Assembly (NCBI GenBank): GCA_963665115.1 | Contig: OY762007.1 | Location: 6,560,001 to 6,624,000 of the forward strand | Direction: 5' to 3' | DNA: 64,000 nt | Source: an uncultured Rivularia sp. | GTDB lineage: Bacteria; Cyanobacteriota; Cyanobacteriia; Cyanobacteriales; Nostocaceae | In this document: piece after piece, positions 49,490 through 64,000 of the stretch | How positions within the stretch are numbered: position 1 is the stretch's first letter | Layout of the letters: the number at the start of each line of letters is the position of its first letter | Notes under the pieces: model-generated | The model's input: the letters and a program-made list of their open reading frames with translations, nothing else | What the model was told of the DNA's origin: nothing | Database searches by the model: none | Program-made: the position numbers and the translations under genes

Positions 49490-50458
49490 ATGAAAAAAAT
49501 AATCATATCACTTTGCACTATACTTGCTTTAACAGCTTGCAAGCACAATCAAAAGCCTGCTAAAAATTTTACTCAATGGTGCCAGGAAAAATCTACATTA
49601 CCACAACAAACGAAATATACAGTTAAACTGTTATTAAAAGAAGCAGGTACTCAAAATTGCGAAGATGCTAACCGAGAACTTAGTGAATCGAATTTCCTTA
49701 ACTTTACTGAAAACGGAATTAGCGACTTAGAGCCGCTTAGCTCTTTAACCCATTTGACTTCCCTTAATATTAACGGAAGCAAAATCAGCAATTTAGAACC
49801 GCTTAGTTCCTTAACTAACTTGACTTCTCTTAGTATTTATGAAAGTAAAATCAGCAATTTAGAACCACTTTCAAAGTTAAGAAACTTAATTTCCCTTGCT
49901 ATTAGTGGAAACAAAATCAGCAATTTGGAACCACTTTCAAATTTAACTAATCTGACTTCCCTTAGTATTAGTGGAAACAAAATCAGTAACTTACAACCAC
50001 TTTTAGAGTTAACAAATTTGACCGAACTTTACCTTAAAGATAATAAAATCAGCGTTCTAAAACCCCTTGCTGGATTAACCAATTTGACTAAACTTTACCT
50101 TGTAAATAATAAAATCAGTAACTTACAACCACTTTCAGAGTTAACAAATTTGACCGAACTTTACCTTGGAGACAACAAAATCACTAATTTACAACCGCTC
50201 TCAAAGTTGACAAACTTGAAGAAACTAGGGCTTGCAAATAATTTTATCAGCGACATAAAACCGCTTGCTAATTTATCCAATTTAACTAACCTAGACCTTT
50301 CTTCTAATAAAATCAGCGATGTCAAACCGCTTTCTTCTTTAACTAATTTAACTAAATCAACAAACTTTAATTCATTTGGACTAAATCTTGATAGAAATCC
50401 TATCGAGAACAAAATCTGTCCTGTAAAGCCAGATGATATATGCAGTTTTAAAAATTAA
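49490..50458 (+). CDS. Internalin-like LRR lipoprotein G
   Basis: LTAC lipobox, both caps, about 11 repeats. Confidence 0.92.
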   Translation: MKKIIISLCTILALTACKHNQKPAKNFTQWCQEKSTLPQQTKYTVKLLLKEAGTQNCEDANRELSESNFLNFTENGISDLEPLSSLTHLTSLNINGSKISNLEPLSSLTNLTSLSIYESKISNLEPLSKLRNLISLAISGNKISNLEPLSNLTNLTSLSISGNKISNLQPLLELTNLTELYLKDNKISVLKPLAGLTNLTKLYLVNNKISNLQPLSELTNLTELYLGDNKITNLQPLSKLTNLKKLGLANNFISDIKPLANLSNLTNLDLSSNKISDVKPLSSLTNLTKSTNFNSFGLNLDRNPIENKICPVKPDDICSFKN

Positions 50459-50623
50459 TACCATAAATAAAATATACGGTTTTAACTTGGGTGCAATTCA
50501 AATCGACTTCACCCTCGTTCCCTTTGCCTTCATATCGGCTATGGTGTACACAACAGTTAAGGTTTTTCCAACATTGATTATTTGCGATCGCGATGGTGGT
50601 GAATTTAAGCTCGATTTTAATCG

Positions 50624-50661
50624 TGTCACCGCATCTTCGACGTTGCGGTGACATTTTTTTT
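50624..50661 (+). terminator. Intrinsic terminator-like hairpin (related stem at 53119-53146, half copy at 55243-55264)
   Basis: tgtcaccgca..tgcggtgaca followed by a T run. Confidence 0.65.
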
Positions 50662-50800
50662 TGCAATAAACCCTTGCCTATATCCACCACCGAATCTGCA
50701 ATCCAATTAAATTTATAATGTAAAAATTCAGTAATTTTAGTCATTTCAATGTATTAAATATTAGCTATAAATGAACTAAATAATTTTTTTTGCTTAAAAT

Positions 50801-52280
50801 ATGAAAATAATTAAAGCTTCTTTTTGTACTGTATTATCCTTCGCAGCATTATTACAAACTACAAAAGCTATTGCAGCACCTCTCAAAACTTTTACAGAAT
50901 ACTGTCAGCAAAAATCAACGTTACCTAAAGAAACCAAACATACCGTTGAAGTGTTGTTAAAAGAAGCCGATATTCAAAATTGTCAGCAAGCGAATCGCAA
51001 ATTAACGAGTTTGACTGAGATAGACCCTTCTAGATAATAAAATCAGCGATTTAAAACCGCTTGCTAGTTTAACTAATTTGACCAAGCTTAACCTTGTAAG
51101 AAATCAGATAAGAGACTTAAAACCGCTTTCAACCTTAACTAATTTAAATCAGCTTTACCTTTCTAATAATCAAATCAGCGACATCAAACCTCTCTCAACC
51201 TTAACCAATTTAGAGCGACTTTTTCTTTCTGGTAATCAAATCAGCGACATCAAACCTCTCTCAACCTTAACCAATTTAGAGGGACTTGTTCTTAATGAAA
51301 ACAAAATCAGCCACATCAAACCACTCTCAAACTTAACTAATTTAGAATATATTTTACTTCATCAAAATAAAATAAGTGACATCAAACCGCTTTCAAACTT
51401 AACTAATTTGACCGAACTTTACCTTGACGGAATTCAAATAAGTGATATCAAACCACTCTCAAACTTAACTAATTTGACTAGTCTTGCCCTTGGCGAAACT
51501 CAAATAAGTGACATCAAACCCCTCGTAAAGTTAACTAAATTAAATAATCTTTCTCTTGCAATTAATCAAATCAGCGACTTAAAACCGATTTCAAGCTTAA
51601 TTAATTTGGAATCGATTAAACTCTCCGGAAATCAAATCAGTGACTTAAAACCGATTTCAACTTTAACTAATTTAAAATTTATTCATGTGAATGGAACTTC
51701 AGTTAGTGACTTAAAACCACTATCAAATTTAGCTAATTTAGAATATATTTCACTTAATCAAAATAAAATAAGTGACATCAAGCCACTTTCAAAATTAACT
51801 AATTTAGAAGGAATTCAACTTAATAAAAACCAGATTAGTAACATCAAACCGCTGTCAAATTTAACTAATTTGGCTCGTCTTTCACTAAGCCAAAATAAAA
51901 TTAGTGATTTAAAACCGCTCTCAACTTTAACCAATCTATATATTATTCAACTCAGCCAAAACCAGATTAGTAACTTAAAACCGCTTTCCAGCTTAAAAAA
52001 CTCAACCAGAATTTTCCTTACTGGTAATAAAATTAGCGACCTAAAGCCACTTTCAAAATTAAATAGCTTGACTATTCTTAGTCTTGATAGCAATCAAATA
52101 AGCGACGTTAAACCGCTATCTTCTTTAAGAAATTTAGCATATCTTAATTTGGATAAAAATAAAATTAGCGACATCAAACCACTGTCTAACTTAACTAATT
52201 TGACCGATCTTAATCTTAAGGATAATCACATTGAGGATAAAACTTGTCCCATACAGCAAAAATCTGTTTGCAAATTTTAG
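50801..52280 (+). CDS. Secreted LRR protein H, +1 frameshift at CCC 51025-51027 (probably a sequencing error)
   Basis: AIA signal peptide; removing one C restores EIDLLDNKISDLKPL and joins the two ORFs. Confidence 0.8.
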
Positions 52281-52500
52281 TTATTTATCCTTAAGCTTTC
52301 TTATCGCGATATCTAATAAAATATTTGCTCGATTGCAGATATATTTTTTATTCGGTTTTTACGTGATTTTGTTTATTAACTGCAAATCGCGAGTCTAGTT
52401 TGTTGTAGATGCGTTCAGCTATGCTGCCAAGCTTGCCCTATGTTTTGATGCTGTGCCTTAAGCGATCGCCGTATTATGGTACTTCCTTAACTATCCCCAC

Positions 52501-53075
52501 ATCAAATCAGCGATTTAAAGCCGCTTGCTAATTTAACTAATTTGACTTCTCTTAGTCTTTCAGAAAACCAAATAAGCAATGTCAGAGCGCTTGCTAATTT
52601 AACTAATTTGACTTCTCTTAGTCTTTCAGGAAATCGAATAAGTGACGTAAAATTGCTTTCTAGTTTAACCAATTTAAATTTTCTCAACCTTCCCTATAAT
52701 CGAATAGTTGATGTTAAACCGCTTGCTAATTTAACTAATTTGACTAGGCTTAACCTGATTGAAAATAAAATCAGCGACATAAAATCGCTTTCTTCAATGA
52801 CCAACTTGACTTGGCTTAACCTTAGCGAAAATAAAATAACCGATATCAAACCACTTTCTAATTTAACCAATTTGAGTCAGCTTTACCTGAAAAAAAATAA
52901 AATAAGTGACGTAAATTCCCTGAAAAACCTAACTAAGCTAAGTTTCCTTTCTCTTGATTTCGATGAAGTCAACGATTTAAAACCACTTTTTCATTTGAAA
53001 TTAGTGGATCTTTCAAGTAAGCAAGCCAAGTTTTTCACTTGTAACTTATTTGCTCCTGCTAATTGCGGATTTTAG
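52501..53075 (+). pseudogene. LRR gene I lacking its 5' end (no signal peptide or N-cap)
   Basis: Upstream element is fused directly to a repeat at ATCAAATC 52501-52508. Confidence 0.8.
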
Positions 53076-53415
53076 TTACTACGATGTAGAAATAATAAGC
53101 ATTAAGACGACAGATAGTGTCACCGCAATATCAATATTACGGTGACTAATTATTTCTAGGTTTGGAATTGGTTACAATATGCTTTATTTATGTGGTGTTC
53201 AGCTATGCTACCTAAGCTCGCCTTCGATCAACTGCTGTAATTAAATCAACAATTGTAAGGCGATCGCCCTATTATCATACTTCCTTAACTATCCCTACAT
53301 CAAATCTTTAATCAAATCTTGTTAATACCTTACGAAATTAACTTCATGTGTTATGAAGTATGTATTCGGCTGGTCATACAGCATTAAATATCACTATTTG
53401 ATAAGTAGTAATACT

Positions 53416-54645
53416 ATGAAAAAGATAATCGCATCCCTTTGCACTATACTTGCTCTGAATCATGCCAAAGCTATCGCAACACCATTACATAAACAAGATA
53501 GTGTAAAAAGTTTTACAGAATACTGTCAACAAAAATCTACGCTACCAAAAGCAACGAAGCATACCGTTGAAGTGCTGTTAAAAGAAGCTGCTACTCAAGA
53601 TTGTCAGCAAGCGAACCGGAAACTTAGGAGTTTGACAGAACTGAATTTAAAAGAGAAGCAAATAAGTGACCTAAAACCGCTTTCAACCTTAACTAATCTG
53701 ATTAAACTTAACCTTATTAGTAATCAAATAAGTGACATCACACCGCTTTCTTCTTTAACTAATTTGACCAAGCTTAACCTGGGGGGAAATCAAATCAGTG
53801 ACCTAACATCGCTCTCAAAATTAACTAAATTGAATCTGCTTTACCTTTGGGCAAATAGAATCAGTGATATCACACCGCTTTCTTATCTAACTAATTTAAC
53901 TCTACTTAGCCTTGGGGGAAATCAAATAAACGACATCACACCGCTTTCTTCTCTAACTAATTTAACTCTACTTAGCCTTCGGGATAATCAAATCAGTGAA
54001 TTAAAACCGCTCTCTTCGTTAATTAATTTAAAGCAGCTTGAACTTTTAGGAAACCAGATAGAGGAATTAAAACCGCTCTCTTCGTTAACTAATTTAAACT
54101 GGCTTCATCTCAGTTTCAATAGAATCAGCGAATTAAAGCCACTCTCTTCGTTAACTTCTTTAAAGCGACTTAGCCTTAGACAAAACAAGATTAGTAATAT
54201 CAAACCGCTCTCAACACTAACTAATTTAACTAATCTAGAGCTTACCCGAAACCCAATTAGTGACTTAAAACCGCTCTCTTCGTTAACTAATTTGACCCAT
54301 CTTTTCCTTGTTAATAATCAAATCAGCGAGGTTAAACAGTTATCTTCTTTAACTAATTTAAAATTCCTTGCTTTGAATAAAAATCAAATTAGCAACGTAC
54401 AACCACTTTCTAACTTAACTAAATTATCAATACTCCATATTAATGAAAATAAGATAAGTGATGTCAAACCACTTTCTGTGCTTAATAACTTAACTGGGCT
54501 TTCCATTAGGAAAAATCAGATCGACAACCTACAACAGTTTTCTGATTTCACTAATTTAAACTGGCTTTACTTACAGGATAATCCTATCCGCAATAAAACT
54601 TGTCCCATACACTTAAAATCTGTATGTTACTTAGATCCGTACTAA
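53416..54645 (+). CDS. Secreted internalin-like LRR protein J
   Basis: AKAIA signal peptide without lipobox, both caps, about 15 repeats. Confidence 0.9.
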   Translation: MKKIIASLCTILALNHAKAIATPLHKQDSVKSFTEYCQQKSTLPKATKHTVEVLLKEAATQDCQQANRKLRSLTELNLKEKQISDLKPLSTLTNLIKLNLISNQISDITPLSSLTNLTKLNLGGNQISDLTSLSKLTKLNLLYLWANRISDITPLSYLTNLTLLSLGGNQINDITPLSSLTNLTLLSLRDNQISELKPLSSLINLKQLELLGNQIEELKPLSSLTNLNWLHLSFNRISELKPLSSLTSLKRLSLRQNKISNIKPLSTLTNLTNLELTRNPISDLKPLSSLTNLTHLFLVNNQISEVKQLSSLTNLKFLALNKNQISNVQPLSNLTKLSILHINENKISDVKPLSVLNNLTGLSIRKNQIDNLQQFSDFTNLNWLYLQDNPIRNKTCPIHLKSVCYLDPY

Positions 54646-54992
54646 AATCTCTTAGCAAGATTTTTAGATTGCTCTACCGGAGGCGATCGCCCACTTTAAA
54701 ACACATGAATCAAGTTTACCGATAAGCTTTTCATGGTGAACGACTATATCTAATCGCAACAAAGCTATTTAATTTCCTTCATAGTATTTTGATAGAAAAG
54801 CTAATTTTAACTAAGTTTTGCGCCATTGAAAATATAGTTGCAGTGCTTGCCTATTGCTCTATGATTTATTTTTCCTTAATATCCCCACATCAAATCTTTA
54901 ATCAAACCCAGTTGATACCTTACGAAATCAATATTGTATGTTATGAAGTATGTATTAGATTAAAAAAAAACTGTCACCTTTATAACTTTAAT

Positions 54993-55277
54993 ATGCGTAT
55001 AAACACTAAATTACGAAGAATCCTATTTATTAGCGCTTTATTTGTCCTGAATTATGGAAAAGCAATAGCAAATCCAATAGCTCAGCAAAATGACATTAAA
55101 ACTTTTACAGAATATTGTCAACAAAAATCGACACTCCCAAAAGAAACTAAACATACTGTTGAAGTGCTGTTAAAAAAAGCTGGTACTAAAGATTGTCAGC
55201 AAGCGAATCGGAAATTAACGAGTTTGACCGAGCTTGATATCAGCATCTTCGAGGTTGCGGTGACTTTATTTTTTTAG
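54993..55277 (+). pseudogene. LRR gene K remnant: signal peptide and N-cap only
   Basis: KAIANP..FTEYCQQKSTLP..DCQQANRKL, then runs into a duplicated intergenic block at ~55243. Confidence 0.8.
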
Positions 55278-55490
55278 CAATAAACCCTTGGCTATATCCC
55301 AGCATCGAATCTGCAATCCAATTGAATTTATAATGCGAAACTTCAGTAATTTTCGTCATTTCAATGTATTAAATATTAGCTATAAATAAACTAAATAATC
55401 TTTTTTCTTAAAATATGAATATAATTAGAGCCTCTTTTTGTACTGTATTATCCTTAAGTGCATTATTACAAACTACGAAAGCGATCGCAG
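55243..55490 (+). repeat. Duplicated block (copy of ~50631-50878): upstream region plus signal peptide of genes H and L
   Basis: gcatcttcga.gttgcggtgac..gcaataaacccttg..gtcatttcaatgtattaaatattagctataaat..aaaatATG in both copies. Confidence 0.85.
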
Positions 55491-56641
55491 CACCTTTCCA
55501 ACCGAGGATTAAAACTTTTACAGAATATTGTCAGCAGAAATCTACACTACCAAAAGCAACAAAACATACTGTTGAAGTACTGTTGGAAAAAGCTGCTACT
55601 CAAGATTGTCAGCAAGCGAATCAAAGACTTAGCAATTTGAATTCCCTTAGTCTTGGATTCAAAAAAATTGTCAACTTACAACCGCTGTCTTCTTTCAGTA
55701 ATCTGACTTTCCTAAATCTGGGAGGGAATGAAATTGAGGATATACAACCGCTCTCAAACTTGACTAATTTAAACAAACTCTGGCTTAACAACAATAAAAT
55801 CGGCGATATTAAGCCACTTTCAAATTTGACTGGTTTAACCGATCTTATTCTTAGAGAAAATCAGATAGACAATTTAAAGCCGCTTTCTAATTTGACTAAC
55901 TTGGCTTATCTTAGTCTGGTAAAAAATAAAATCAACAATGTTGAAGGACTTTCTTCTTTAACCAGATTGACTCGACTCTATGTTCAAAGTAATAAAATTA
56001 GCGACATCAAACCGCTTTCCTCTTTAACAAATTTGACTCAACTCAATCTCAGCAATAATAAAATCAAGAATGCTGAAGGACTTTCTTCCTTAACTAATTT
56101 GACTGAGCTTAGCCTTAGTGTGAATAAAAATATTGATATAAAACCGCTTCGAGGATTAACTAACTTGACCAAGCTAGATATTGCATTTAGTAGAATTAAT
56201 AGTATAGAATCGCTCTCAAGGTTAACTAACTTGACTAAGCTAGAACTTGGGTTTAATAAAATTACCAATATAGAACCACTTTCTTCTTTGACTAGTTTGA
56301 CTGAGCTTGTCCTTTATGGCAATAAGATCAGCGATCTAAAGCCGCTTGCAAACTTAACTAATTTGAATTCTCTTAACCTATTGCACAATAAAATCAATGA
56401 TATAAAGCCGCTTTCAAACTTAACTAATCTGAATTCTCTTTGGCTCGCAGGTAATGAAATTAGCGATGTAAAGCCGCTTTCTAATTTAACTAATTTAGAT
56501 TTCCTTTGGCTCTCAAACAATAAAATCAATGATATAAAATCGTTAGGTGGTTTAAATCAGTTAACTGCTCTCTTAGTTAATAATAATCCTATTCAAGACA
56601 AAACTTGCCCCATACAGCAAAAGTCTGTATGTCTTTTTTAA
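55415..56641 (+). CDS. Secreted internalin-like LRR protein L
   Basis: TKAIA signal peptide, both caps, about 15 repeats. Confidence 0.92.
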   Translation: MNIIRASFCTVLSLSALLQTTKAIAAPFQPRIKTFTEYCQQKSTLPKATKHTVEVLLEKAATQDCQQANQRLSNLNSLSLGFKKIVNLQPLSSFSNLTFLNLGGNEIEDIQPLSNLTNLNKLWLNNNKIGDIKPLSNLTGLTDLILRENQIDNLKPLSNLTNLAYLSLVKNKINNVEGLSSLTRLTRLYVQSNKISDIKPLSSLTNLTQLNLSNNKIKNAEGLSSLTNLTELSLSVNKNIDIKPLRGLTNLTKLDIAFSRINSIESLSRLTNLTKLELGFNKITNIEPLSSLTSLTELVLYGNKISDLKPLANLTNLNSLNLLHNKINDIKPLSNLTNLNSLWLAGNEISDVKPLSNLTNLDFLWLSNNKINDIKSLGGLNQLTALLVNNNPIQDKTCPIQQKSVCLF

Positions 56642-59119: not shown

Positions 59120-59139
59120 TAGTAATCGTGAGACGACAT

Positions 59140-59221
59140 GGGTCGGTGTCCGAGTGGTTAATGGAGGCGGACTGTAAATCCGCTGGCTTAGCCTACGCTG
59201 GTTCGAATCCAGCTCGGCCCA
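59140..59221 (+). tRNA. tRNA-Tyr(GTA)
   Basis: GGGTCGG/TCGGCCC acceptor, GCGGA-CTGTAAA-TCCGC anticodon arm, long variable arm, GTTCGAATC. Confidence 0.97.
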
Positions 59222-59285
59222 TTTTCACTTCTGGGTTTTGGATTTAGCTTTAGAAAAATTCAAGACCTAGATTTAAATTTTCTTC

Positions 59286-59357
59286 GCCGATGTAGCTCAG
59301 TGGTAGAGCACACCCTTGGTAAGGGTGAGGTCACGAGTTCGACTCTCGTCATCGGCT
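59286..59357 (+). tRNA. tRNA-Thr(GGT)
   Basis: GCCGATG/CATCGGC acceptor, CACCC-TTGGTAA-GGGTG anticodon arm, GTTCGACTC. Confidence 0.97.
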
Positions 59358-60187: not shown

Positions 60188-60206
60188 GAATGCTAAAGAT
60201 AATTTT

Positions 60207-60234
60207 AGCCTCCGGTGACGGAGGTTATTTTTTT
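60207..60234 (+). terminator. Intrinsic terminator
   Basis: agcctccg-gtga-cggaggtt followed by a T run. Confidence 0.75.
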
Positions 60235-60255
60235 GCTTGATCGCAAATATCCAAG

Positions 60256-60546
60256 GTGATGTATGATTTGTTGTTGGACAATCCAAAATCCAAACCCAAA
60301 TCGCTAGATGAATACACCACACACAACTTTATTTGGAATATTGCTGATGATGTATTAAAAGACGTTTATGTTCGTGGAAAATACCGACATATAGTTCTAC
60401 CAATGACGATGTTAAGACCTTTGGATTGTTTGTTGGAACCCACTAAGGATAAAATGCTTGAGCGGTATCAGCAATTGGAAGAAGGTAAGTTCGGAAAAAA
60501 GGCGATCGCCCAGAAAAAGATAGATGATAAAAATATTACAGGGTAA
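60256..60546 (+). pseudogene. hsdM: N-terminal remnant of a type I R-M methyltransferase subunit
   Basis: NFIWNIADDVLKDVYVRGKYRHIVLPMTMLRPLDCLLEPTK matches the HsdM N-terminal domain; the rest is absent. Confidence 0.85.
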
Positions 60547-60596: not shown

Positions 60597-61751
60597 ATGA
60601 ATGATAATCGAAATGATAGTTATGCTAATCTTCCTGATGAACTTTTAGAAGATATTTTGGAGGATGCACCAAAAATAGCAGATAAAATCAAACCGTTATT
60701 TGAAGAATTACAACAACAAAGAAAAACAATACACCAAACATTAGAAGATAATGATTTAATTTGTAGAGTTGGTGATTTAGACAATCCTGCCAGTCCTTCT
60801 GTTGCTGCTATTGATGGTGGACAAGCGATTGAAAAATCTATTGGAGCTGATACTGTAATCGCTGTAGGTGTTGGTGTTGAAGGATTAGTAAGAGAAGATA
60901 AGCGTAAATGGGGTTCAGTTCAATATAAAAACTGGCAAGATGTTCTTCCTCATAGTTCTGAGAGTAATCCTAAAGTTACTAGAGGGGCGATGACTGCTTT
61001 AGAATTATTAGTCATTAGTCAAACTCCCCACGATGTTGTAATTGCTGATGGTTCTCATCAAACACCAGTAATAGGAATTAATAGTTTAACAAGTATGTCA
61101 ACATTAGATGAGCCTCATTTACAACAGGTTGCATGGGACATTCTGAATCAATTTAATGTGATAGATTCTCTTAATAAAGCTATGACAAATCCCAACGTTG
61201 TTTATATGGTTAAATATGATTCTTCACAAGAAATTGGCTTAAAATTTCTTAGTGATTTTAATTCTAAGCTTGATGATAAAACAATTATGACATTAATTTT
61301 AAAATCAGATGAGTATACAAAACCTTTACCCGTAGGTCAAACTCCTAAAACAAAAAAAGTTTGGGGTGATTTATATATTTCAGTTTCAAATAAATTCGAT
61401 TTTCATGGGAAACGAGACAGTATTAAAGAGGGATTAAACAAAGCAATCATCTTACCCAAAAATCATAAAATATATTTTACTTACTATAAACCTTATCAGT
61501 GGTCGCCTGCCTATAGAATAGAAATGAAAGAGAATTGTGCAAAAACAGATATTGAATTTGCAAAAGTTTTAAAAGCAGTTAAAGAACAAGTTGTTTCTAC
61601 TGAAATTAAAGAACCTTACCCTCAGTATTTAGCTGATATGATGGCTAAAAGCATTAGTGGCGGTTTAGAAGCATTAAGAGCCGTTATACAGTACCAATTC
61701 AGTGATAATCAAGATTTTCTTCAACTACTAACTCAATCATACAGAACCTAA
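60597..61751 (+). CDS. nurA: NurA-domain nuclease
   Basis: VAAIDGG, ALE, VIADGS, MVK, EPYPQYLADMMAK follow the NurA motif order; adjacent to HerA. Confidence 0.8.
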   Translation: MNDNRNDSYANLPDELLEDILEDAPKIADKIKPLFEELQQQRKTIHQTLEDNDLICRVGDLDNPASPSVAAIDGGQAIEKSIGADTVIAVGVGVEGLVREDKRKWGSVQYKNWQDVLPHSSESNPKVTRGAMTALELLVISQTPHDVVIADGSHQTPVIGINSLTSMSTLDEPHLQQVAWDILNQFNVIDSLNKAMTNPNVVYMVKYDSSQEIGLKFLSDFNSKLDDKTIMTLILKSDEYTKPLPVGQTPKTKKVWGDLYISVSNKFDFHGKRDSIKEGLNKAIILPKNHKIYFTYYKPYQWSPAYRIEMKENCAKTDIEFAKVLKAVKEQVVSTEIKEPYPQYLADMMAKSISGGLEALRAVIQYQFSDNQDFLQLLTQSYRT

Positions 61752-61775
61752 TTAATATTTTCACGAGGGAAAGAG

Positions 61776-63578
61776 ATGGATTTACTAGATTTATTAAAAG
61801 ACCACTCAAATCAATTTAATATCGGTAGTGTTGGTTCACCAAGTAATACAACAGAAATTATTATTGACATTAATCAAAAAAGCGAACAAAAAAGAAATTT
61901 AGGTCAATTAGTATGTCTTATTCAACCACAAGAACAAGAACAACTAGTCGTTATTGGACAAATTAGCGAAATAGAAACTAAAAATCGTTGGCACGAAGAT
62001 TTGACTTTTAGAGGAATAATTAAACGTAGAGGTTCACTTCCTCATCTGAGTGGAAAAGCAGACGTAAGAACAGCTAAATTAAATGTACAAGCTTGTTTTA
62101 GTATTGCATTAGATGGAAAAATTAGTGAAGGAACATTAGGTACTTCTCCAGCAACAGGTACGCCTATTTTTTCAGTGAGAGATGAAATTTTAGATAAACT
62201 TTTAGAACAGTATAAAAATCAAATTATTTATTTAGGTAATGCCTATGCCACCGATGTAAAAATGCCGCTTTGGTTAAAGCATTTTGATAGAGGAGAAGGA
62301 GGTGCAGGAGAAGCTTATCATATCGGAGTTTTTGGTAAAAGTGGTTCAGGAAAATCTGGTTTAGCTGCTTATACTTTGTTAGGATATGGCAAGCATAAAA
62401 ATATGGGAATTATTTTTATCGATCCTCAGAATCAATTTGCTAGCGATACTGATTTACCTTTTAAATTACATGATTCTCTAAGGAGTTTGGGTAGAACAGT
62501 TAATATTTATCGTTTAACAAATCAAATTAGATTAGGAACTAAAAAAAATGCCGTGAAGTTGTTTGTTAATCTTTTACTTAAAGCAGATTTTTATAGAAAT
62601 ATTGGAGTTAGAAATAAAGAGAATCAAGAATATGCTTCTGAGGAAGTAGATCGAATCATAAGAAATATTTTATCAGGCTTTCAGCCAAGACTTGAATTAA
62701 AAAATTCTCCTGATGATTTATTGCGTAGAGTATTAACTGAACTAAGAGACGATGATAATGCCTTACAAAGAATATATGCTACTACACAACCAAGACAAAG
62801 ACTAGAACAAGCTCTTGGTAATCTTCTTATTGAAAGAATAGAACTTCAAAGAGTTAAAGAGCAAATTTGGCAACCTGTATTAGATTTATTTCTGGAAAAT
62901 GATAGCGCAGGTAATCATAGGACTTCTTTATGGCATATTGTTCAAAAAGCTGCTACAGATGAGCAAAAACCTATTGTATTTTTAGATATTAAAGGAGAAG
63001 GTACAACATTTGCCGATAATGAGGAAATTAAAGCTCTTATTCTGAAAGAAATTAGTATCACTCTAAAAGTCGCTGGAGAAGAAGCATTTAAGCATGATAC
63101 AAAATTAAACTGTTTGATTTGTCTCGATGAAGCCCATCGATTTGTTAAATCTTCTTTTGGCAGTGGTGATAATAGTGAAATGTCTAATTTAACACGAGCT
63201 TTTGTTGATGGAGTAAGAACAACTAGAAAATATGGTCTTGGTTATATGTTTATTACTCAAACTATTGCATCTTTACATAAAGAGATTATTCAACAATTAA
63301 GACTTTATGCTTTTGGATATGGTCTTACTTCAGGTAGTGAATATAGACAAATTGAAGAATTAGTAAGTGATAGACAAGCCTTAAGTTTATATAAATCATT
63401 TGTAGATCCTCAAAGTAGCAGACAATATCCTTTTATGTTTCTAGGTCCAATTTCTCCTTTATCTTTTATAGGTTCGCCTCTATTTATTCAAATGTTTACA
63501 GAATTTAGTAAGTTTAAAGAGGCTAATAAATTAGTAAAACAATCTCAAGGTAATTTATTTAATAATGATATATTGTAA
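61776..63578 (+). CDS. herA: HerA/FtsK-family ATPase with N-terminal HAS-barrel-like region
   Basis: HIGVFGKSGSGKS, FIDPQNQF, CLDEAHRF, TTRKYGLG.MFITQ. Confidence 0.88.
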   Translation: MDLLDLLKDHSNQFNIGSVGSPSNTTEIIIDINQKSEQKRNLGQLVCLIQPQEQEQLVVIGQISEIETKNRWHEDLTFRGIIKRRGSLPHLSGKADVRTAKLNVQACFSIALDGKISEGTLGTSPATGTPIFSVRDEILDKLLEQYKNQIIYLGNAYATDVKMPLWLKHFDRGEGGAGEAYHIGVFGKSGSGKSGLAAYTLLGYGKHKNMGIIFIDPQNQFASDTDLPFKLHDSLRSLGRTVNIYRLTNQIRLGTKKNAVKLFVNLLLKADFYRNIGVRNKENQEYASEEVDRIIRNILSGFQPRLELKNSPDDLLRRVLTELRDDDNALQRIYATTQPRQRLEQALGNLLIERIELQRVKEQIWQPVLDLFLENDSAGNHRTSLWHIVQKAATDEQKPIVFLDIKGEGTTFADNEEIKALILKEISITLKVAGEEAFKHDTKLNCLICLDEAHRFVKSSFGSGDNSEMSNLTRAFVDGVRTTRKYGLGYMFITQTIASLHKEIIQQLRLYAFGYGLTSGSEYRQIEELVSDRQALSLYKSFVDPQSSRQYPFMFLGPISPLSFIGSPLFIQMFTEFSKFKEANKLVKQSQGNLFNNDIL

Positions 63579-63580
63579 AC

Positions 63581-64000
63581 ATGACAATTGATGAATTATA
63601 TGAATTAAAACAAGAATTATTAACTAAATTAGCAAATTATGGAGTTGAATGGGATTTTGATTCAGAAAAGCTAATTGTGGATGATTTAAAACATATGCAA
63701 AAACAATTAGCTGAACATACTAATTTACGAGGTTTAAAATATGAAAGTAAATTCAAAAACTATTTAGCTAAACCTCAAGAAATAGATATTCTTAAAATTA
63801 ATCCTTATTTAAAAGTTGTCAAAACTCAAGCAGAAAGAGAGCTTTGGGCTTATGCCACCTCTTTTTGGTCAATTCCAGTTACAAATGGCTATGGGAGAAG
63901 AATTCGTTTTTTAGTATTTGACGAACAAAATAATAAATTAATCGGTATTTTAGGATTAAGTGACCCTATTATTGGTTTAGGAATAAGAGATAAATATATT
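63581..64000 (+). CDS. druA: DUF4338 / Druantia DruA-like protein, partial (runs off window); not in ORF track
   Basis: 140 open codons starting 2 bp after the herA stop, with FWSIPVTNGYGRRIRFLVFDEQNNKLIGILGLSDP....IRDKYI. Confidence 0.75.
   Translation, partial: MTIDELYELKQELLTKLANYGVEWDFDSEKLIVDDLKHMQKQLAEHTNLRGLKYESKFKNYLAKPQEIDILKINPYLKVVKTQAERELWAYATSFWSIPVTNGYGRRIRFLVFDEQNNKLIGILGLSDPIIGLGIRDKYI

Follow-up and report, generated by a model that had tools for sequence, protein, structure and literature searches.

The right-hand end of a 64,000-nucleotide stretch of DNA from an uncultured Rivularia sp. (the window; positions 6,560,001 to 6,624,000 of contig OY762007.1, assembly GCA_963665115.1, forward strand) carries a cassette of three genes, which encode a NurA-family nuclease, a HerA/FtsK-family ATPase and DruA, a GNAT-fold protein of the DUF4338 family. 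We find that this cassette is real, intact, mobile and widespread, and that it is likely an unnamed immune system. A role in defence is highly probable; the more specific hypothesis, that it works as an anti-phage system akin to restriction–modification (R-M), in which DruA would mark self DNA and NurA–HerA would degrade invader DNA, we regard as the best single reading, at about even odds. The genes are as follows.

60597..61751, + strand: nurA, NurA-family nuclease, 384 amino acids (aa); Pfam match, fold match and invariant residues
61776..63578, + strand: herA, HerA/FtsK-family ATPase, 600 aa; Pfam match and motif alignment
63581..64000, continuing to 64645 (G000:C1:6624645), + strand: druA (DUF4338), GNAT-fold protein, 354 aa; Pfam and PADLOC matches and structural model

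The first-pass annotation of this DNA had described three co-oriented genes with short gaps, the third crossing the window edge, and its coordinates hold: 24 bp separate nurA from herA and 2 bp herA from druA, and the druA open reading frame, with the sequence beyond the window edge included, comprises 354 aa and stops at window-equivalent position 64645. NurA matches Pfam PF09376 at 25.3 bits (cut-off 21) and HerA matches DUF87 at 39.1 bits (cut-off 23.2). The third frame, which had been called DUF4338, is a true member of that family, with 225 bits to PF14236 (cut-off 27) and 289 bits to the PADLOC DruA profile, and it is the only DruA found in a search of the whole genome.

The NurA model (pLDDT 90) finds its best fold match in S. 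solfataricus NurA (2ygk; Z 21.6, root-mean-square deviation (rmsd) 4.2, 291 residues aligned) and reaches Z 11.5 against TdpB, the NurA-like protein of the TdpABC system considered below. Residues D73, E136, D151, H154 and D347 are invariant in all 40 aligned relatives, these being 40 of the 120 matches listed. NurA therefore has the RNase H-like fold and the catalytic acidic residues of the nuclease in a HerA–NurA nuclease–translocase. In HerA, Walker A (G187–K193), Walker B (D451, E452), R481/R484/K485 of the RKYG arginine region and Q495 are invariant in 44 of 44 sequences. Arginines and glutamine of this kind serve HerA proteins as arginine finger and Q sensor. The same motif roles are given in PMC10853773. 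By its DUF87 match and its motifs, HerA is thus a HerA/FtsK ATPase equipped with Walker A and B, arginine finger and Q sensor. It matches TdpA weakly in sequence (E 0.33) and scores 12–13 bits against the NCBIfam anti-phage HerA models, which have cut-offs of 800–850.

Insertion at a tRNA-Thr hotspot and recurrence elsewhere

The trio is a recently inserted, mobile block at a variable hotspot of defence and toxin–antitoxin genes. Its position beside tRNA-Thr, noted in the first-pass annotation, is borne out by the features that frame it.

59139..59357, + strand: tRNA-Tyr(GTA) and tRNA-Thr(GGT), left anchor of the hotspot, outside the cassette
60206..60227, + strand: intrinsic-terminator-like hairpin, just left of the left junction of the insert
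60256..60546, + strand: HsdM N-terminal remnant, relic of a type I R-M system, 96 aa, within the insert; profile match

The insert is 4.4 kb long and contains the hsdM remnant, nurA, herA and druA only. Its GC content of 0.311, against 0.379 for the genome, is among the lowest 0.1% of windows along the sequence. Fifteen relative loci were fetched; seven keep both flanks, and none of these seven has the trio. In three of the seven, similarity ends at window positions 60191–60238 and restarts at the druA stop codon. The left junction lies at about 60239, right after the hairpin, and opens with GATCGC, the core of the cyanobacterial HIP1 repeat, a full copy of which stands at 60502; the coincidence of this motif with the junction may be due to chance. 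The slot is occupied in relatives by a pair of RT_UG34 (a DRT-type reverse transcriptase) and NERD-helicase genes, a Z1 helicase-like gene, STAS/PIN genes, XisHI or toxin–antitoxin genes, and a MazF-like/Panacea pair forms the conserved right anchor. One such RT_UG34 reverse transcriptase with its NERD-helicase partner lies in the same tRNA-Thr slot at L180:12823-16145 (G007).

This DruA is found in one of 24 same-genus genomes, and the closest named DruA locus, also from an uncultured Rivularia, is 95% identical. The ratio of nonsynonymous to synonymous substitution rates against seven cyanobacterial copies is 0.09–0.13 for nurA, 0.12–0.20 for herA and 0.16–0.25 for druA, and all three genes are under purifying selection. 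Housekeeping HerA–NurA is paired with mre11/rad50. The trio shares with the archaeal and bacterial HerA–NurA end-resection complex its fold, catalytic acidic residues and ATPase motifs, whereas it is an extra, mobile and patchy copy that is linked to DruA and does not lie beside mre11/rad50. Because a separate, ordinary NurA is present elsewhere in the genome, the distribution is patchy (one genome in 24) and the insert is of low GC, the trio is not a vertically inherited housekeeping repair locus.

The statement that the hsdM remnant lies directly upstream stands, as the profile match identifies an HsdM N-terminal fragment. It does not belong to the conserved cassette: in one relative, whose contigs join at the start of nurA, other DNA lies upstream of nurA, and we rejected the remnant as a member. 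A tblastn search of the genome found no second copy of it.

The linkage of nurA–herA to DruA recurs in several phyla. Using DruA as bait on GTDB genomes we obtained 54 loci. The NurA/HerA partners of DruA form four clades, of which clade A includes those of the window. nurA and/or herA adjoin DruA in 48 of the 54 loci (45 by profile and 3 as remnants), a count for which the profiles of clades B–D were seeded from these same loci, with Pfam finding HerA in 11 of 11 seeds and NurA in 8 of 11. All three genes are intact in 28 loci. Of the remainder, two contigs are too short and four loci are without nurA–herA, two of the four facing a DruE-type helicase. This last arrangement, in which an Aquificota DruA of the window's clade is convergent to a DruE-type helicase, is seen at L052 and L053:9821-15725. 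NurA as bait on metagenomes gave at least 78 loci, several on near-duplicate contigs and hence not independent; among the 78 listed, DruA or a remnant is present in 63 and clearly absent, with long flanks, in 2, 13 end too close, and the trio is fully intact in 41. A scan of viral contigs for NurA gave no match. Hosts include Cyanobacteriota, Chloroflexota, Bacteroidota, Bacillota, Calditrichota, a patescibacterium and an aenigmarchaeon.

Two gene orders are found, nurA–herA–druA and druA–nurA–herA, with both gaps at most 60 bp in 33 of 40 and 42 of 48 loci, respectively, and three loci have a convergent arrangement. Neighbours include type I, IIG, ISP and III R-M, OLD, Schlafen, SIR2 and AbiEii genes, in a survey of 61 proteins picked by hand for adjacency and size rather than sampled at random. 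Of 400 cyanobacterial genomes drawn evenly, seven have a DruA by Pfam, and in six of the seven it lies beside HerA. Since six of the seven DruA genes of this draw thus lie in the present cassette, tools that call every PF14236 match Druantia mislabel these loci.

The NurA–HerA partners of DruA were swapped. The NurA profiles of clades A and B do not match each other significantly (E 0.77), yet window DruA is 57–67% identical to the DruAs of clade B and C cassettes, whose NurA gives no BLAST match to window NurA, and only 33–38% identical to those paired with its own clade-A motor in other phyla. Among those compared, the nearest non-cyanobacterial NurA and HerA (L081; 46% and 55% identity) accompany a very different DUF4338 subfamily. 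In a quick tree of 96 rows, the 13 cyanobacterial clade-A DruAs nest among those of clades B, C and D, and monophyly of all clade-A DruAs is rejected (approximately unbiased test, p-AU 0.00033; LG+G4, 28 rows chosen after the tree had been seen). On plasmids, DruA is further accompanied by DruBCDE and by SspFGH/DndFGH-like genes. Such swapping fits coupling through DNA better than coupling through a co-evolved interface, and we infer that DruA, as a portable enzyme, connects to ATP-driven DNA motors via something generic, most simply DNA.

DruA and its likeness to known systems

The DruA model (pLDDT 87) adopts a GNAT fold, and its top structural rows in VIA-align are GNAT-type acyltransferases. 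The best Z, 9.9, is common to a putative acetyltransferase and to Mom of phage Mu (8bv8; rmsd 4.1, 173 residues aligned), and Mom is the first named match in a viral structure library (E 0.002), structural relatives occurring in giant viruses as well. An assignment of DUF4338 to the GNATs (PMC10853773) agrees with the model. Mom, of about 240 aa and encoded by a phage, shares the fold with DruA, which is cellular and has 354 aa. A PDB sequence search with the DruA profile returned 0 matches at E 10, and Foldseek against the PDB returned none at E 0.001 or better. Mom is a tRNA-dependent adenine aminoacyl-transferase that moves glycine from Gly-tRNA to adenine N6 in double-stranded DNA, with H58, Y59, R111, S124, D149, R151 and Y159 in its active site (PMC13219725), and Mom domains have been found fused to nucleases (PMC7824862).

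A divergent DUF4338 subfamily may bridge the two proteins. Its members lie at L081:876-1787, L085:1343-2257 and L196:7822-8562, those of L081 and L085 directly preceding clade-A nurA–herA. The subfamily aligns to window-type DruA at E 1.5e-11 and only weakly to Mom (116 columns, E 0.008), a value that one of 29 GNAT controls nearly equalled with E 0.0095, and it keeps five of the seven Mom active-site residues (with an inferred numbering offset of 10). In the bridge alignment through this subfamily, Mom S124 corresponds to S172 of window DruA. The invariant set of window DruA is R106, D114, R136, D137, K173, S220, Y223, R225, H242 and R297, and 26 of 29 chosen conserved positions are common to it and canonical Druantia DruA; the protein is basic (pI 9.4). 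In 28 DruA relatives that are longer or otherwise unusual, the fused domains were only IS-type or DUF488 pieces and offered no functional clue, and the ESM Atlas, searched for proteins without PF14236, gave a single sub-threshold lead, a phage GNAT-like protein of PF22559 at 0.83. DruA homologues are also present in Pelagibacter myophages (L198:5608-6906, L199:5863-7005), near genes for a recombination endonuclease and a 2OG-Fe(II) oxygenase.

The first-pass annotation had named a canonical druBCDE set downstream, together with a nurA–herA linkage that fails to recur, as evidence against a new system. Genes read past the window edge with Pfam and PADLOC include no druBCDE directly downstream of druA; convergent toxin–antitoxin genes (PIN/DUF433, MazF-like/Panacea and HigBA) are there instead. 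DruE is absent from the genome, where the best match to its profile is a short helicase motif at 31.9 bits. The cassette thus shares the DruA family with type I Druantia, with 36% identity to two plasmid Druantia DruAs, whereas DruB, C, D and E are not nearby and NurA–HerA takes the place of a YprA-type helicase as effector. In type I Druantia, host DNA is reported to bear a mark at CAGCTGNC, called from PacBio data as N6-methyladenine (m6A) (bioRxiv 2024.04.14.589459).

TdpABC likewise combines one modification gene with a HerA-like and a NurA-like protein (PMC12914056, PMC13223576). Its third gene encodes the phosphorothioate enzyme TdpC, whereas here it is GNAT-fold DruA; no TdpC is found in the insert, the sole third gene being the PF14236 DruA. 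TdpB and TdpA do appear as fold and sequence matches, yet NurA is nearer to archaeal repair NurA than to TdpB. TdpABC is an analogy and a precedent, and not the nearest relative of this clade. The Sir2–HerA and DUF4297–HerA anti-phage systems also place a HerA motor and an effector in a defence cassette, whereas here the effector is NurA and a third, enzyme-like gene is added; beside HerA, Pfam and PADLOC match no Sir2 or DUF4297 effector and the neighbours are NurA and DruA. The trio would work like TdpABC and is a member neither of TdpABC nor of Druantia. As the first-pass annotation had supposed, it is not a catalogued system in the sources searched: the full-text literature searched, which did not reach the TdpABC source paper or the supplement of PMC10853773, contains no description of it.

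Three relatives of the cassette carry a different gene in the place of DruA. Outside the Rivularia genome, the NurA profile gives three strong matches in the 400 cyanobacterial genomes, all of them DruA trios, and three weak ones. Each weak match is directly preceded, at gaps of 5, 8 and 201 bp, by a gene for an N6/N4 methyltransferase that has a DPPY motif, and no DruA is present in 16 kb at these loci.

L212:4063-7994 (G037:C58): methyltransferase–NurA–HerA cassette
L214:6188-10123 (G221:C177): methyltransferase–NurA–HerA cassette
L213:5813-10007 (G289): methyltransferase–NurA–HerA cassette

Two of the three are related (69–75% identity) and the third is independent (23–26%). These cassettes are the best indirect support for a modification slot at the position of the third gene, and they may represent a separate, unnamed R-M-like system. 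In L065/L066, a glycosyltransferase gene precedes nurA; we weighed it as a further possible writer and rejected it as unproven, since unrelated genes separate nurA from herA at these loci.

Proposed mode of action and its alternatives

We hypothesize that DruA is catalytic, acts on DNA and would tag the DNA of its own cell with an acyl-type mark; Mom and the adenine signal reported for type I Druantia suggest, by analogy, that adenine N6 is the likeliest site. DNA of invaders, presumably phages or plasmids, would lack the mark and be fed by the HerA motor into the NurA nuclease, whereas the mark would block this motor–nuclease. The defence and restriction-like reading is supported by the hotspot position and by the methyltransferase beside nurA in the sister cassettes. 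A broader proposal makes NurA–HerA the restriction arm of an R-M family with a plug-in writer slot, filled by DruA, by an amino-methyltransferase or, in thermophiles, by TdpC, and has DruA write a new acyl or aminoacyl adenine mark that is the type I Druantia signal; we offer it tentatively and think it somewhat unlikely to hold as a whole.

A number of observations weigh against a self-marking DruA with a restricting NurA–HerA. The survival of intact nurA–herA where DruA is broken or missing (L062, L096, L098, L065 and L066) argues against strict R-M addiction, and the cassette has no recognisable sequence-specificity subunit. In HerA–NurA complexes, the ends of double-stranded DNA are threaded into NurA at the expense of ATP, and both strands are cut. 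HerA–NurA cleaves both strands from ends, and NurA alone leaves circular double-stranded DNA uncut (PMC12977600); with such dependence on ends, a mark on self DNA might be unnecessary. For type I Druantia, the mark was called as m6A and its writer was not identified as DruA (bioRxiv 2024.04.14.589459), and this type is reported to have methyltransferase accessory modules (bioRxiv 2026.05.12.722862). In the reading of Rakesh et al., DUF4338 fused to DndF is a suicidal co-effector that targets protein (PMC10853773). The Z of 9.9 is not special to Mom, many GNATs lying within 1 Z unit, and direct hhalign comparison of DruA with Mom (PF25680), run in three set-ups, gives a non-significant E of 0.33–0.58, a level that ordinary GNAT controls reach as well. 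In the bridge alignment, the equivalents of Mom H58, Y59 and R111 are replaced by W96, S97 and T156 in window DruA. Finally, the methyltransferase cassettes represent only two independent lineages, the methyltransferase of the third, independent cassette ends just after its S-adenosylmethionine-binding motif and looks truncated, and methyltransferases are common neighbours in defence islands anyway. As judged from sequence, a chemistry related to but different from Mom's is likelier for DruA than Mom's own.

In one alternative, the cassette would defend the cell while DruA is a back-up toxin or regulator, acylating protein, tRNA or the NurA–HerA complex. NurA–HerA would then degrade linear phage DNA ends directly or finish the cuts of neighbouring restriction enzymes, in keeping with the many trio loci that abut type I, IIG, ISP or III R-M genes; a GNAT fold with no significant Mom profile match, the published co-effector reading of DUF4338 (PMC10853773), the company that DruA keeps with DruE and with SspFGH/DndFGH-like effectors and its loss from some loci also fit. 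However, DruA is intact without nurA–herA in L039 and L038, where a toxin with no guard would not be expected; free partner swapping speaks against a specific protein partner, and a methyltransferase occupies the equivalent position in the sister cassettes. We judge this explanation unlikely.

DruA could also be a reader, loading NurA–HerA wherever it detects a replication structure or modified DNA of an invader, as in type IV restriction, and its basic character (pI 9.4), its invariant Arg/Lys residues and the replacement of Mom's catalytic residues are in line with this. Loading would nevertheless need an interface with motors of unrelated clades, and homologues in Pelagibacter phages and giant viruses fit a modifying enzyme better than a loader, which makes a reader improbable. 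To the view that the trio is a mobile accessory of DNA repair or recombination, acting in end resection with no defence role and with DruA as regulator or passenger, we give little credence: although NurA has its best fold match in archaeal repair NurA (Z 21.6, with TdpB at 11.5) and in L065 and L066, which have no DruA, nurA and herA lie among genes of housekeeping type, the trio is patchily distributed, low in GC, placed at a hotspot and often broken, and the genome has a separate housekeeping NurA, all of which speaks against it, as does the tight linkage to DruA across four NurA/HerA clades.

DruA is listed in defence catalogues, and the literature searched assigns no activity to it. If it marks DNA as we hypothesize, this would be its first function and a new epigenetic base chemistry on bacterial chromosomes, self/non-self discrimination in type I Druantia would be explained, and restriction would have co-opted a classic DNA-repair machine on several occasions, each time with an exchangeable enzyme for the mark. 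A three-gene cassette of 4 kb is a far simpler test bed for this than five-gene Druantia.

Neighbouring genes and other features

Just past the window, three toxin–antitoxin pairs are stacked (L001:6649-9665): PIN/DUF433, MazF-like/Panacea and HigB/HigA. At other loci of the cassette (L080, L086 and L096–L099), a HigB-like gene and a gene for a helix-turn-helix (HTH)/IrrE-type peptidase stand between druA and nurA. Some cyanobacterial copies have a MerR-type HTH gene that overlaps the start of nurA (L008:1459-1887, L061:6555-7004); it is a possible regulator and is absent from the Rivularia locus. A promoter scan stayed at chance level, with 19 found and 22.9 expected, and RNA-library contigs of a mat relative span the trio and its flanks equally and so give no sign of transcription. 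Farther to the left in the window, positions 49490-56641 hold at least five genes or parts of genes in tandem, which encode internalin-like leucine-rich repeats behind signal-like N-termini; some of these genes are apparently split (50801-51037 / 51078-52280; 54789-55277).

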